Shown piece by piece: positions 269 to 30,748 of a stretch of DNA of 64,000 nt. The stretch's first letter is position 1. Every line of letters begins with the position of its first letter. The notes under the pieces are model-generated. The model was not told where the DNA came from. It did not search any database and worked only from the letters and a program-made list of their open reading frames with translations. The stretch comes from an uncultured Acidobacteriota bacterium (GTDB lineage Bacteria; Acidobacteriota; Vicinamibacteria; Vicinamibacterales; CAVVIG01), in NCBI GenBank assembly GCA_963718825.1, contig CAVQZZ010000001.1, positions 598,404 through 662,403 of the forward strand, read 5' to 3'. The translations under genes were made by a program, and so were the position numbers.

Positions 269-333
269 GTGACTGGTGACTGGTGGCTGGTGGCTGGTGG
301 CTGACCAACCACCAGCCACTATCGCTAGCCACC
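269..333 (+). repeat. Heptanucleotide array, locus A: GTGACTG x2 and GTGGCTG x3, followed by an inverted unit
   Basis: Direct reading gives GTGACTGGTGACTGGTGGCTGGTGGCTGGTGGCTG accaa CCACCAGCCAC. Positions 290-300 (GTGGCTGGTGG) pair perfectly with 309-319 (CCACCAGCCAC), forming an 11-bp stem with an 8-nt loop. The locus lies between the receptor stop (340) and the DUF423 start (257). Confidence 0.9.
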
Positions 334-339
334 CCTGCG

Positions 340-3300
340 TCAGAACAAGAATTTCACCGCGAACTGCACCTGCCGCGCCGAACCCGAATCGCCGGTCGGG
401 AAGCGCGTGTTGCTGATCACGCCGAACGACGTGCTGCCGACCGTCGCCGTCCGTCCGGGCTGGCCGAGGTTCGCCTGGTTGAACAGGTTGAACACCTCGA
501 GCCGCAGCTGCATGCGCGCGCTGCCCTGCAGCGTCACGTTCTTGATGAACGACAGGTCGGTGTTGCCGAAACCCGGTCCGTAGATCGCGTTCCGTCCGCA
601 GGTTGCCGAAGTGCGCGACGCCGGCCGCGTTGTACGGCAGCGCGAAGACCGACGATGACGTGCACGAGCCGGCGATGCGCGGATCGCAGACCGTGTTGCT
701 CGCGAACCACTGGTAGCTCGTGACCGCGCCGGTCGTCGGATCGACATTCGGCGTCGGCGTGATCGCCGGCAGCGCGCCGATGAGATCCGGGCGCACCGTC
801 GTCGATGCCGGTAATCGTCGTGATGTTCGTGACGATGTTCAAGCGGATTGCCCGTCTGCGCCTGTTCGACGACGACGACCTGCCAGCCGTCCTTCGAGGC
901 GGTTGCCGATGGAACGGCAGATCGTACGACAGCGTTGACCGCGACACGATGACGGACGTCGAAGTCCGACGGCCCGACGCTGCCGGCGAGGTTCGTGCTG
1001 TCCTGCGCCGTCAGCGTGCCGTCGTACGAATTCGTGTCCGTCGACTTCGACAGCGTGTACGAGCCGGACAGCTGCAGGCCGTGCGTCAGGCGGCGGTTCG
1101 CCGTCATCCACAGGCCCTTGTAGTCGGACCAGCCGAGGCTCGTCTGTTCGGTGATGTTGCCGAGCGTCGCGCCAGGGAGGATCGGGCTCGAGGCCGACAG
1201 CTTTGGATACGGACGCACGATGCCGCCGGGCGTCGTGAACTGGTTCAGGTTGATCGGGATGCGCTGACGGTCGCCGTGCGATCCGAAGTAGCCGACCATC
1301 ACGCCCGTGCCGCCGAACTCGCGCTCGACGTTGACGTTCCACGTCTGCATCCGGCCCGGCAGGAAGTTCGGATCGGTGAACGACGGGTTCAAGGCGCGCC
1401 GCGCCCGCGCCGCTCAATGGCGTTGTCGAGCTTGATGTTGCTCGCCGCCGTGCCCGCCGCCTGACGCGGACAGCGGCGTGACGAGCGGCGGATTGTTCGC
1501 CTCTCCCACGAAGTAGCCGGTGTTGCTCTGGTTCACCATCACCGCGTACGCGGCGCGCACGGCGAGCTTGCCGTCGCCGGTCGGATTCCAGATGACGCCG
1601 ACGCGCGGCTGGAAGTCGCTGCCGTTCTTCGTGACCTGCGTAAAGCCGTTCGCGCCGATCTGAATCAGCGACGACGGTTGCCGGATCGAACGTCGACGAG
1701 CTTGTTGTCCGCTTCGGTCGGCGACGGGCAGGTAGTCGTAGCGCAGACCGAGATCCAGCTTCAGGTTCGATCCGAGCGAGATGGAGTCCTGCACGAATGC
1801 GCCGACCGCGTTCACGTACGCGTTGTAGGTGAGGCCGCCGAGCGTGATCGCGAACGCGCTGCCGAATCCCTGCTGGAACGCCGCCACGCTGGGATACGTG
1901 AAGCCTGCCGGGATCGCCGTTCGAGCTGTTGTGCTTGACTCGACGGAACTCGCCGCCGAACTTGATGATCTGGTTCCCGTGCAGGTAGGTCGCCGTATCG
2001 CCGATCGCGCCCGTCGTCACTTCGCGGGCGCTCGGGAAGCCGGCCGGACCGCCGATGTTCAGGCCCGGACCCGAGATCGTGATTTGCGGCAGCGCGACCG
2101 GGTTCTGGGTCTGCCCGACGTTGATGCCGAGCGCTCCGGTGTCGACCTGGGTGGTCGGATTGAAGCTGATGCTGATGCGGTTGTAGCCGGCGCGCACTTC
2201 ATTGACCAGCGCCTGGCTGAAGACGTGCGTTTCGTTCACGCGTCAGCACCTGCCGGTGGCCGCCGCGGTTGTCGCCGAAGCCCGGCACGGTGTTGCCCTG
2301 CGCGTTCGGCTCGTGGCGGAAATCGCGCTGGAACGCGTAGTAGACGTGCAGGTCGTCGTTCTGCCGCAGATTCGTCCGCACGTCGCCCGTGGTCTGATCG
2401 TTGGTGACCGGGGCAATCTCCGATCCGATCGCGCGCAGGCCCGTGGAGTCGTTCGCAACCGGGATGTACTGGAGCAGGTTCTTCGCCAGCGGGTCGGTGA
2501 CCGCCGCCCGCTGCGCGTTGCTCAGCGTTCCGGAGTTCAGGTCGACGCGCCTGCGTATGGCGCAGGCCCTCGTAGCTGCCGAAGAAGAACATCTTGTTCT
2601 TCGCGACCGGTCCGCCGAGGTTGACGCCGAACTGCTTGCGGTTGAAGACCGACTGCGGCGCCGGCGGCGGGTTGAAGTAGTTGCGCGAGTCGAACTTCTG
2701 GTCGCGGTAGAAGTCGAAGCCTTCGCCGTGGAACTGGTTGCTGCCCGAGCGCGTCGCGACGTTGACGATGGCGCCCGAGTTCCGTCCGTACTCGGCGCTG
2801 AAGGTCGAGTTGTCGACTTTGAACTCCGAGACCGTGTTGATCGACGGCTGGAACGTCACCTGCGAGTTCGACAGGTCGTTCAGGTTGATGCCGTTCACCA
2901 TGAAGTTGACCGACGTCTCGCGATTGCCGGCCGACATGAACGAGAACGCGCCCTGGCCGCGCAGCGGCGCGCTCAGTCCGGCGTTCTGCGGCGAGGTCGA
3001 TCCGCCGGGCATCAGCGGACCGAGGTCGACGAAATGCCGGCCGTTCAACGGAATCTCCTGAACCGTCTTCTCGGCCATCGACGCGCCGACCGCCACCGTC
3101 GCGGTGTCGATGAGCGGCGCGGCGCCGGACACCGTGACGTTTTCAGCGAGCGTTCCAGGCTCCAGTTTGAGATTGACCGCGACCGTCTGCGCGGGTCCGA
3201 GATCGATCTCGCGTTTCTGGTCGGCGAACCCGTCCACGTGGGCGACGATCTCATAGTGGCCGGGTTGCAGGGCGGCGGCGACGTAGTCGCCGGCGTTGTT

Positions 3301-3495
3301 GGTGACGACCGCCCGCTCGGCCGAGGTCGCCGTGTTGCGAATCGCTACCGACACGCCGGGCATGACGCCGCCCTGCGCGTCGCTGACGGTCCCTTGCAGG
3401 GTGGCTGTTGACTGGGACCATGCTGGCGACGCCGCGCAAAGCACGGCTGCCAGGACTGCGAACAATCCGATACGCGCGCGAGAAGCTGGCCGCAT
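340..3495 (-). pseudogene. TonB-dependent receptor with N-terminal CarboxypepD_reg domain; at least 5 frame changes
   Basis: The N-terminal piece (ORF 2236..3633, probable start M47 at 3495, AGGAGG about 8 nt upstream) reads MRPASRARIGLFAVLAAVLCAASPAWSQSTATLQGTVSDAQGGVMPGVSVAIRNTAT...NAGDYVAAALQPGHYEI, then the plug region QEIPLNGRHF. The continuation is spread over ORFs 2199..2381, 839..2239, 1414..1887, 340..1392 and 83..796. The C-terminus is ...LEVFNLFNQANLGQP...ARQVQFAVKFLF, with a terminal Phe. Confidence 0.8.
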
Positions 3496-3595
3496 CCGAT
3501 CACCCTCCTGTTTCGAACAAATTTCCCAGGAATCCCAAAAACGGGCGGTGATTATAAGCGAATGCCTCCGGAGGTCACGCGGTGTATGCGCACCT

Positions 3596-3628
3596 AAAAA
3601 GAAAAAGGCCGGCGGTTGCCCGCCGGCC
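3596..3628 (-). terminator. Rho-independent terminator downstream of the radical SAM gene
   Basis: On the minus strand: GGCCGGCGG-gcaa-CCGCCGGCC (a 9-bp GC stem, 3607-3615 paired with 3620-3628), followed by TTTTTCTTTTT (3596-3606). Confidence 0.75.
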
Positions 3629-29259: not shown

Positions 29260-30238
29260 TTAGTTCGCGCGGGCGAGCTGCGTGTAGGCGTCGGCCGTTT
29301 CGTGCGCGTGGTACGAGCTGCGGACGAGCGGACCGGACTCGACGTGCACGAATCCCATAGAGAGCGCGACCTCTTTCAGCTCGCGGAATTCGTCCGGATG
29401 ATAGTAGCGGACCATCGGCGCGTGACCGGCAGTCGGGCGCAGGTACCTGTCCAATCGTCAGGATCTCGGTGCCGACTTCGCGCAGATGCTCGAACGTCGC
29501 GATCAGTTCCTCGGGCTCTTCACCGAGGCCGACCATCAGGCCTGTCTTGGTCGGGATGTCTGGCGCGTAGCGTCGCGAGCGGTCGAGCAGCTCTAAGGTC
29601 CGCTGGTAACGGCCGCCGGATCGCGCCATGCGATAAAGGCGCGGGACCGTCTCTGTATTGTGGTTCAGCACGTCGGGCCGTGCATCGAGCACCGTGTGGA
29701 GCGCCGCTTCGTTCCCTTGAAAATCCGGAATCAACACTTCGAGGCGGCACTGTGGCATCCGTGCGCGCGTCTCGCGGATTGTGGCGGCAAATATCGAGGC
29801 GCCGCCGTCACGCACATCGTCGCGGTCGACCGATGTGATCACGACGTAGCTCAGATCGAGTGCGTGAATGGCAGACGCGACGCGCTCCGGCTCGCTCGGA
29901 TCAATCGCGCCGGGGCGCCCATGGGACACCGCGCAGTACGAGCACGCGCGGGTGCAGACGTCGCCGAGGATCATGAACGTTGCCGTTCCATGATTCCAGC
30001 ATTCGCCGATGTTCGGGCACTGCGCTTCCTCGCACACCGTGTGCAGCCCGAGGTTGCGCATGATGCCTTTCAGGCGCAGGTAGCTCGGCGAGCCCGGCGC
30101 GCGCACCTTCAGCCACTCGGGTTTCGGGATGCGCGGCAGTACCGCATGGGCGGCCGTCGACTGCACGGGCGAGAGAGGAATCACGCGCGGCACGTCTTCT
30201 ATTATATCGACGCGACGCGTCAAGCCCCGCAGTGCCAC
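29260..30238 (-). pseudogene. lipA: Lipoyl synthase; one frameshift near 29450
   Basis: ...HTVCEEAQCPNIGECWNHGTATFMILGDVCTRACSYCAV...VITSVDRDD...NHNTETVPRLY... (the N-terminal part of ORF 28625..30238) is followed by [47 protein letters not shown] in ORF 29260..29454. Confidence 0.9.
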
Positions 30239-30240
30239 GG

Positions 30241-30621
30241 TTATGCGCCGCGTGCTTCGGCGGGCTGCTGATACAAGCCGATGACGTTTCCGCCTGGATC
30301 GCGGAAGCGGGCGGTGATCTCCGGCGCGTCGGCACCGATCGGCTGAACCACTTCACCGCCGTTGGCGACGATCGCCTCGAGAGTCGCCGCCACGCTGTCG
30401 ACCATCACGTACACCAGCAGACCCGGCTCCGCCGCGGGCCGGCGGCCGATGGTCCAGGTGCCACTCACCTCGCCGGTCGTGTCGTCGAATGCCGTGTGGC
30501 CGTTGCCTCGCGTCCTCGTCCGCCAACCGAACACCTTCTCGTAGAACTGGCTTGACCGCGCGATATCGGAAGAGGGGATTTCGATGTAGCAGATCTTGCC
30601 GTTTGCGAGCGTCGGAGGCAT
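30241..30621 (-). CDS. VOC (glyoxalase/bleomycin-resistance/dioxygenase) family protein
   Basis: From ATG at 30621: MPPTLANGKICYIEIPSSDIARSSQFYEKVFGWRTR...ARFRDPGGNVIGLYQQP (126 aa). The longer track ORF (to 30789) only adds translated heptamer repeat. Confidence 0.75.
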   Translation of the reverse strand: MPPTLANGKICYIEIPSSDIARSSQFYEKVFGWRTRTRGNGHTAFDDTTGEVSGTWTIGRRPAAEPGLLVYVMVDSVAATLEAIVANGGEVVQPIGADAPEITARFRDPGGNVIGLYQQPAEARGA

Positions 30622-30664
30622 GCCGGCATTATGCGCCAGCCCGACCTGAACGGCGAGCCTCCAA

Positions 30665-30748
30665 CAACCAGTCACCAGCCACCAGCCACCAGCCACCAGC
30701 CACCAGCCACCAGCCACCAGCCACCAGTCACGAGCCACCAGCCACGAC
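30665..30748 (-). repeat. Heptanucleotide array, locus F (12 units, the largest)
   Basis: CAACCAG TCACCAG (CCACCAG)x7 TCACGAG CCACCAG CCACGAC. It sits between the divergent VOC (start 30621) and thioesterase (GTG 30772) genes. Confidence 0.95.

Follow-up and report, generated by a model that had tools for sequence, protein, structure and literature searches.

Why should one seven-nucleotide word be repeated in tandem at one gene end after another? This question is raised by a 64-kb stretch of the genome of an uncultured Acidobacteriota bacterium (Vicinamibacterales; GenBank assembly GCA_963718825.1, contig CAVQZZ010000001.1, positions 598,404 to 662,403), here called the window, in which tandem arrays of CTGGTGG, or CCACCAG on the opposite strand, lie at six loci (A to F). 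Positions in the window were verified by direct sequence reading and Pfam scans, and relatives were used for comparison. We favour, with some reserve, the reading that the six loci are copies of one slippage-driven heptanucleotide satellite, akin to the short tandemly repeated repetitive (STRR) sequences of cyanobacteria, and that selection at gene ends has acted on it as a filter. It is a member of a class already on record, the dispersed heptanucleotide satellites known from cyanobacteria (STRR), Xanthomonas, Nostoc and Beggiatoaceae. Arrays of the STRR or Xanthomonas-Nostoc type are typically placed within about 50 bp of an ORF end and number tens to hundreds per genome.

One repeat family at six loci

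The arrays of the window are as follows.

262 to 333, no strand assigned: locus A, GTGACTG GTGACTG, (CTGGTGG)x3, an 8-nt loop and an inverted CCACCAGCCAC arm
3678 to 3720, minus strand: locus B, degenerate, CTACTGGTGA CTGGTGG CTGTGCA GTGGCTGGTGG CGGTGG
13377 to 13432, plus strand: locus C, eight units with CTGGTGA and CTCGTGA variants among them
14071 to 14113, minus strand: locus D, CTAGTGG, (CTGGTGG)x4 and CTGGCTAG
15640 to 15673, plus strand: locus E, degenerate, GGGGTGG TTGCTGG CTCGTGA TTGGTGG CTCGTCGG
30665 to 30748, minus strand: locus F, twelve units in a divergent spacer

An earlier reading of the letters of the window (the original prediction) had named CTGGTGG/CCACCAG arrays at these six loci, and all six are present where it had placed them. 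Tandem Repeats Finder reports period-7 arrays at 269-303, 13377-13433, 14075-14110 and 30656-30745, together with degenerate arrays (period 7/14) at 3677-3707 and 15642-15671. Furthermore, a two-unit CTGGTGG probe with up to two mismatches matches the 64-kb window 28 times, compared with 0.24 matches expected from shuffles. Every match but one falls inside five of the six loci, the degenerate locus E remaining unmatched, and none lies beyond 30748, in agreement with the earlier statement that such arrays are missing from 31-64 kb. The clustering in the first 31 kb was considered as a meaningful feature and set aside, the loci forming three neighbourhoods whose chance of falling in one half is about 0.1 and not significant.

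That the arrays form one related family, as had been proposed, is supported by the use of one unit at six sites and by a rare 21-mer. The latter, CTGGTGG-CTCGTGA-CTGGTGG, is common to loci C and F, and its double variant CTCGTGA accounts for three of 1135 units when every array examined is counted. With 45 units in use in the clade, an independent origin of one unit at six sites within 30 kb is unlikely. Since relative L001 shares loci D and E, the CTGGTGG family is, judging from this comparison, older than the split from L001. The variant units had also been said to follow the same order across loci. This holds only locally, because the shared 21-mer sits at opposite array ends, at the 3' end of C and near the 5' end of F.

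Variant units are informative in another respect. Among the G-to-A variants in all CTGGTGG arrays, CTGGTGA occurs 65 times, CTGGTAG 23 times and CTAGTGG 16 times, while CTGATGG, the sole variant of this kind that makes an ATG, is depleted (2 vs 16-65). Selection for stop-containing variant units at array edges was also considered and was set aside, as every G-to-A change gives either a stop or an ATG.

Placement at gene ends

Five loci are intergenic and lie 0-43 nt from gene ends, which agrees with the earlier view that the arrays sit tightly against genes, and the sixth (C) lies in the linker of a vWA gene. Both orientations occur, as had been observed before (3:3 over the six loci), and the oppositely oriented loci C and D are 640 bp apart.

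Locus A fills the spacer between the stop codon of a barrel gene (340-342, minus) and the start of DUF423 (255-257, minus). It lies 11 nt upstream of the DUF423 ATG (CAT at 255-257) and contains a perfect 11-bp stem, both as originally described, and as RNA the whole locus is predicted to fold at -45 kcal/mol (z = -4.9). Locus B follows the radical SAM stop codon (3721-3723), at a distance of 4 nt and not the 2 nt first given, and lies upstream of a separate canonical terminator.

3604 to 3631, minus strand: intrinsic terminator, 12-bp stem and T tract, downstream of locus B and kept in L001

This terminator is context and stands outside the repeat family. Locus D holds the stop codon of an AAA-type ATPase, as predicted, the TAG (14110-14112) lying within its first variant unit CTAGTGG, and ends 13 nt before the vWA ATG (14055-14057). 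Locus E is placed 34 nt upstream of the ATPase ATG (minus) and overlaps a candidate TTG start (15646) of a GDPD gene (plus). Locus F is flanked by a glyoxalase start (30619-30621, minus) and a thioesterase GTG (30772, plus); it does lie upstream of the latter, by 23 nt and not by the 24 nt counted earlier. The thioesterase sense strand of locus F reads CCACCAG, and as RNA its C-rich strand is predicted to be unstructured (z = +1.5).

Two further observations concern these surroundings. From array D to the vWA ATG, each reading frame meets a stop codon (TAG, TGA, TGA) within 19 nt (14058-14075), and the last TGA abuts the ATG; these stops would terminate translation begun within the open array. 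The outer-membrane barrel gene of ~3.3 kb (340-3633), which lies between radical SAM and DUF423 and is flanked by A and B, carries its own promoter-like site and terminator, and in relative L123 (13612-16410) DUF423 directly follows the radical SAM gene.

Paired arms and their polarity

Spacers further along the window had been thought to use different short repeats. On the contrary, at 51.6 and 61.5 kb the architecture is the same, a periodic hairpin of a G-rich and a C-rich arm, built from other units.

51571 to 51689, no strand assigned: 51.6-kb repeat, 7-8 nt unit, a GATGGCAG/GATGGGG arm and a complementary CCATC-type arm
61482 to 61538, no strand assigned: 61.5-kb repeat, a GGCTCGA/GGCTCAA arm, an 8-nt loop and a (CTGAGCC)x4 arm

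The former begins at a TAG stop codon (51571-51573) and fills a convergent spacer, and the latter is bounded, on the minus strand, by a stop codon (61539-61541) and the start codon that follows it (61441-61443). As RNA, both are predicted to fold at -52 kcal/mol (z = -2.9 at 51.6 kb and -2.7 at 61.5 kb). Similarly, the L001 version of locus D is an inverted pair with a predicted fold of -31 kcal/mol (z = -3.3), and paired arrays of many other relatives are predicted to fold strongly (-63 kcal/mol, z = -12 in L140; -50 kcal/mol, z = -7 in L204). Single C-rich arrays are predicted to be unstructured (z = +1.5 to +2.1).

The order of the two arms is invariant. Among CTGGTGG arrays fetched across bacteria, the G-rich array comes first in 16 inverted pairs (within 150 nt) and the reverse order is found in none; period-7 arrays of any unit in the clade give 25 G-first pairs and, again, no reverse pair. 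About half of the period-7 arrays of the clade belong to an inverted pair. Both arms of a pair carry the same locus-specific unit, so the second arm would be a local copy and not an imported element, and the spacers between the arms (8-93 nt) bear no relation to one another, even in the same genome. By a rough estimate of open reading frame (ORF) boundaries, the closer ORF lies on the side of the G-rich strand's 5' end in 44 arrays and on the other side in 22. This orientation toward an ORF is the published rule for the Xanthomonas and Nostoc heptamers (PMC4692102).

A scan for the intrinsic terminator consensus flagged the canonical site at 3604-3631 and none of the arrays, and locus A is not followed by a T tract. 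No Rfam match above the gathering score was obtained anywhere in the window. Separately, an A-rich run with a period of ~7 nt (AAAAGTA AAAGGTA GAAGGAA AAAGTTA), holding several stop codons, lies between two convergent genes at 29226-29262.

Turnover and slippage in relatives

The relatives comprise four sequences from homolog look-ups and 80 Illumina-type metagenome contigs with the same operon, obtained in one scan. The closest one fetched is contig_25060 of the Microflora Danica metagenome-assembled genome (MAG) MFD10113.bin.2.70 ('uncultured Acidobacteriota'), which is syntenic with window 2924-23530 at 84-89% nucleotide identity. None of the contigs fetched is identical to the window: look-ups of the exact ATPase, radical SAM, glyoxalase and thioesterase proteins (the last with two choices of start) gave no match and no second strain, and the C-terminal part of the vWA protein alone was matched, in that related species. 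In 547 kb of non-redundant sequence from the relatives, arrays of at least 2.8 copies have period 7 in 71 cases, against 14 for period 6 and 13 for period 8 (~5:1), and 45 different units are in use.

The spacer that separates the ATPase stop codon from the start of the vWA gene, and that holds locus D in the window, illustrates how quickly the units are replaced at a fixed site. Across 66 relatives it is a 4-nt overlap in 14, measures 3-20 nt in 11 and reaches 21-146 nt in 41. The heptamers of the long spacers vary by species (TAGGGAT, GGGACTA, GGGGCTG, GATGGCT, TAGTTGC, GAGGTCA). In the window and L001 the unit is TGGTGGC, also read as GTGGCTG, to which L001 adds an inverted arm; L122 has TAGGGAT and L124 has TAGCCAC. 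The stop-proximal half is G-rich in 38 of the 40 informative long spacers and C-rich in the other 2. Moreover, the first heptamer with the stop codon recurs at +7 in 16 of 41 long spacers, compared with 1.6% in shuffles, and the signal is specific to period 7, other periods giving 0-1 cases. Whole arrays also vary in presence: locus B is absent at the orthologous L001 site, and locus E is retained almost base-for-base in L001 and is absent in L122-L124.

Slippage in 7-nt steps is seen directly in relatives. For example, L135 and L136, which are 99.3% identical over 6.5 kb, differ by only three indels (+7, +21 and +7 nt), all inside heptamer arrays, and a +7 indel and a single 1-nt indel are those that separate L166 from L167 (99.5% identical).

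The quality of the assemblies has to be kept in mind here. Several genes of the window look frameshifted: the barrel gene (340-3633), which is of the TonB type, is in three ORFs and the GDPD gene (15646-16436) in two, a pair of M13 peptidase genes is broken up, and the N-terminal part of lipoamide dehydrogenase is out of frame (19338-23489 and 27796-29242). Such broken genes suggest an error-prone long-read consensus, and therefore exact repeat counts in the window need care. The contig names of the relatives suggest long-read metagenome assemblies, with genes more fragmented than those of the window. The arrays sit where long-read consensus may be unreliable.

Arrays within coding sequences

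Locus C had been reported to lie inside a coding sequence, and it does. It separates the halves of an Rv0959-like vWA gene (N-terminal part 13449-14057, vWA part 12734-13342, both minus), with CCACCAG on the sense strand. Homologs of the N-terminal part (Pfam Rv0959_3rd and VWA_2) are single proteins in which a hypervariable linker follows ...LLNAVQRE. This linker, 51 to 159 nt long, has a length divisible by three in every one of the 69 Illumina orthologs, and the 51-nt form is found in 29 contigs (27 after near-duplicate removal). Expanded linkers occur in 36 of the 63 non-redundant orthologs; their best period is 7 in 25, and their sense strand is C-rich in 23 vs 10. The linker units include CCACCAG (L194, L134), CAGTCAT (L125), CCCCAGT, CCTCCAG and CAGGCAG. 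In the window, L001 and L125 the linkers measure 105-106 nt and carry related units (CTGGTGG, CTGGTGA/CTGGCGA and CTGATGA), a resemblance that fits one old array whose units would have been homogenised differently in each lineage.

The linker of the window is 106 nt long and leaves the halves of the gene out of frame. Four other long-read-type assemblies have linkers of 106, 104, 110 and 106 nt, so that all five assemblies of this type are out of frame at this point. Because all of these are out of frame and all 69 Illumina orthologs are in frame, the frameshift in the window is a probable consensus error or one-unit slip, and seven or ten units at locus C would restore the frame. Phase variation of the vWA gene was rejected as the default reading on the same count of Illumina orthologs.

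Other repeats also occupy this linker. At the locus C ortholog of L123 (10610-10719), as well as in P0002, P0107 and L162, a 23-bp perfect palindrome, GGGTCGGGAGCCATTTTCAATTT...AAATTGAAAATGGCTCCCGACCC, replaces the heptamer array and is translated in frame as ...WGREPFS...; it is a different repeat type in the same tolerant site. CCCCAGT arrays lie in frame in the vWA linker of the soil Acidobacteriota relatives L184, L199 and L159. We take CCCCAGT to be the STRR1 unit of heterocystous cyanobacteria.

CTGGTGG arrays are free of stops in all six frames (LVAGGWW / PPATSHQ), and the earlier warning that they would yield repeat peptides in called proteins is borne out by PPATSHQ inserts in proteins of other genomes. 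Encoded by in-frame (CCACCAG)3-4, these occur in a leucyl-tRNA synthetase, the tail of a UvrD-type helicase, an ATP-grasp enzyme and a glycosyltransferase-methyltransferase linker.

PPATSHQ inserts, (CCACCAG)3-4: L113 4045-4072; L049 4382-4402; L088 2831-2858; L121 6861-6888

In three Bryobacterales MAGs (L018, L106 and L108), (CCACCAG)3-4 occupies a conserved position, either in the N-terminus of MurG or immediately upstream. Being open in six frames, the arrays extend ORFs, create PPATSHQ/LVAGGWW pseudo-peptides and blur start-codon calls.

Proposed mechanism

In the reading we favour, arrays would arise and change size through replication slippage in 7-nt steps, and the second arm would be made by local inverted copying (template switching), a step suggested by the locus-specific unit that paired arms share. 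Units would be homogenised within an array and, in the window genome, also copied between arrays, which would account for the six CTGGTGG loci and the shared rare 21-mer. Selection would then decide where arrays persist, according to what gene ends or linkers tolerate. The survivors would be arrays that are G-rich on the sense strand directly after stops, arrays that are C-rich on the sense strand before starts and free of start codons and structure, and in-frame P/A/T/S/Q-coding runs in linkers. The G-rich strand begins at the neighbouring gene end, and the stop codon is often part of the first unit. The hairpins formed in transcripts may be a by-product that is sometimes useful, and the paired forms probably also serve, incidentally, as RNA stem-loops between cistrons or at 3' ends. 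Because the operon works without them in many relatives, the arrays are read as tolerated or selfish DNA and not as a required signal.

Some points weigh against this satellite reading. A neutral model predicts neither the 41:0 polarity of the arms nor the recurrent gain of arrays at the same spacer, and some selected function or directional mechanism may be at work. Contig L135 has three different units at three sites, so the sharing of one unit is not universal. We infer the copying between loci, and likewise, from the relatives, the slippage at the six loci of the window. Moreover, single arrays are without clear transcription bias when genes are called by a crude method based on GC content at third codon positions (GC3), which leaves most arrays unclassified: on the 5' side C-rich arrays number 20 vs 17 G-rich, and on the 3' side G-rich arrays number 20 vs 12 C-rich.

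A bolder proposal, which we consider unlikely, is that bacteria of many phyla have in common one dedicated and directional process by which 'periodic-arm hairpins' are made at gene ends as Rho-proof intercistronic insulators. A G-rich 7-nt array would be laid outward from the stop codon and then back-copied as the C-rich arm, the agent being either fold-back synthesis by a G/T-rich nascent strand or an enzyme. If this were true, the 41:0 polarity, the 7-nt register and the repeated independent gain would be signatures of one mechanism and not of chance slippage plus selection.

Alternative explanations

A selected RNA element is a serious, though doubtful, alternative to the slippage-driven satellite. 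Paired stem-loops would insulate or halt transcription or lend stability to the cistron upstream, single G-rich arrays behind stop codons would have the same effect in weaker form, and the G-arm-first order would never expose a C-rich stretch for Rho loading. Such a role could explain why strong predicted hairpins run from a stop codon to just before the next start, why the polarity is 41:0, why 38 of 40 spacers have a G-rich array directly behind the stop and why the arms still match each other though the units differ between species; the C-rich arrays, predicted to be structure-free, also fit. However, in 14 of 66 relatives the genes overlap and leave no spacer, and 11 have just 3-20 nt. The stems are without a following U tract, the terminator scan flags no array, and locus B lies upstream of a canonical terminator that is separate from it. 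The fast turnover of both sequence and length also argues against such an element. Quadruplex formation on the G-rich strand, as a regulatory element, is very improbable. The GG-N-GG-NN spacing could give two-tetrad quadruplexes, as originally suggested, and the sister units TAGGGAT, GGGGCTG and GGGACTA have G3-G5 runs like those of the quadruplex-forming Xanthomonas/Nostoc repeats (PMC4692102). Nevertheless, the suggestion is weak at best, as CTGGTGG has GG runs alone, the hairpin competes in paired forms and many units of the same architecture are without G runs (CAGATTG, GATGGCT, GTTGCTG, GAATTTG). Since sister units range from G5-containing to G-run-free, the quadruplex is not the common denominator.

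Two further explanations treat the arrays as DNA elements. G-array, core and C-array could together form a non-autonomous mobile element, similar to repetitive extragenic palindromic (REP) sequences or to MITEs (miniature transposable elements with inverted repeats), with heptamers as terminal inverted repeats and a transposase elsewhere. We hold this to be improbable, even though the fixed arm order is expected of a defined element, one unit recurs at six sites of the window, and behind the radical SAM gene the window carries an array where L001 has none. The cores between the arms, 8-93 nt long, show no kinship even inside a single genome, the arm units are locus- and species-specific and begin at the local stop codon, and comparisons of filled and empty sites reveal neither a clean insertion boundary nor a target duplication. 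No Pfam match to a transposase was found among the main window ORFs up to 42.2 kb. As had been pointed out, the E. coli Chi octamer appears, by construction, wherever two units adjoin (GCTGGTGG, identical across unit junctions), and arrays also occur in Enterobacterales (Mixta, Sodalis). Tandem GCTGGTGG octamers might then be a hotspot regulating a RecBCD/AddAB-type nuclease, but we give this extremely little weight. Isolated CTGGTGG/CCACCAG words outside arrays number 5, compared with a median of 8 for 105 heptamers of the same composition, and speak against the Chi-like role once raised. The orientation is 3:3, with opposite orientations 640 bp apart, and inverted pairs cancel polarity. In view of the inverted pairs and of the 44 other units with the same anatomy in the relatives, the octamer match looks coincidental. 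Among the window ORFs scanned, no RecBCD/AddAB genes were seen. Long-read metagenome assembly as the source of the arrays deserves next to no credence. The many broken genes of the window and its close relatives are typical of error-prone assemblies, but the same kinds of arrays are present in metagenomes assembled from Illumina data with MEGAHIT/SPAdes and in complete genomes of isolates, which refutes an artefact for the arrays as such.

Comparison with known systems

At least 120 blocks of (CTGGTGG)3 are present in species-representative genomes. Among the matches listed there are 28 from Acidobacteriota (mostly Bryobacterales), 7 from Gemmatimonadota, 8 from Planctomycetota and ~25 from Actinomycetota, together with Enterobacterales and one archaeon; these counts, assigned by record titles and not normalised, suggest an enrichment in Acidobacteriota. 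No paper on heptamer repeats in Acidobacteria was found in the literature searched, and a study of 3' stem-loops contained nothing that bears on them.

Cyanobacterial STRR heptamers such as CCCCAGT were reportedly described by Mazel and colleagues in 1990 (cited in PMC4692102). Like them, the arrays studied here are tandem heptanucleotide families at many non-coding loci, with several families per genome, and the unit CCCCAGT itself is present in linkers of relatives (L184, L199); unlike them, they are hosted by Acidobacteriota. REP sequences and bacterial interspersed mosaic elements (BIMEs), too, are species-specific intergenic hairpins that lie at gene ends in both orientations, and they can protect mRNA 3' ends. 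REPs, however, are no 7-nt tandem arrays and are marked by a conserved GTAG-type head and a cognate REP-associated tyrosine transposase (RAYT, TnpA-REP). Neither this head nor such a transposase was found here, the main ORFs up to 42.2 kb having been scanned for transposases. Chi works as dispersed, strand-biased single copies, whereas the octamer of the window is confined to arrays, not over-represented and unbiased in orientation.

The TAACTGA direct repeats of Beggiatoaceae, Cyanobacteria and Bacteroidetes are mostly intergenic, lie a few nucleotides from start codons and have a patchy phylogeny (MacGregor 2015, PMC4679880). Hardly ever inverted, with one indirect repeat in 170 sets, this A/T-rich family is found mainly upstream of starts (PMC4679880), in contrast to the arrays described here, which are G-rich after stops and often paired. 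Phase-variable repeats such as the heptanucleotide tract at H. influenzae hmw1A (PMC8262952) share the slippage of unit number, and a 7-nt unit within a gene would switch the frame. Unlike contingency loci, however, the arrays adjoin housekeeping genes, and all 69 accurate assemblies keep the linker in frame, so that switching is not the normal state.

The heptamers GGGAATC of Xanthomonas and GGGGA(C/T)T of Nostoc/Anabaena form arrays at many loci, ~90% of them between genes and with both strands in use (Rehm et al. 2015, PMC4692102). Some of these are inverted pairs, sites are shared between sister species with variable length and sequence, and no function had been found (PMC4692102). The window arrays are likewise dispersed 7-bp tandem units, mostly intergenic, on both strands and in part paired. 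They differ in phylum and unit, in the many unit types that coexist in one clade and in CTGGTGG being without G3-G4 runs, so that stable quadruplexes are unlikely. The strict G-arm-first polarity and the in-frame colonisation of linkers were measured here and do not appear in the part of that paper available (PMC4692102). The heptamer-satellite phenomenon, described so far mainly in cyanobacteria, Xanthomonas and Beggiatoaceae, is extended to soil Acidobacteriota, which suggests that it is general. Three regularities would have to be explained by any mechanism, namely the 7-nt register, the turnover of units at fixed sites and the absolute G-arm-first polarity, and it is this polarity, together with the recurrent gain of arrays at the same spacer, that is most worth pursuing.

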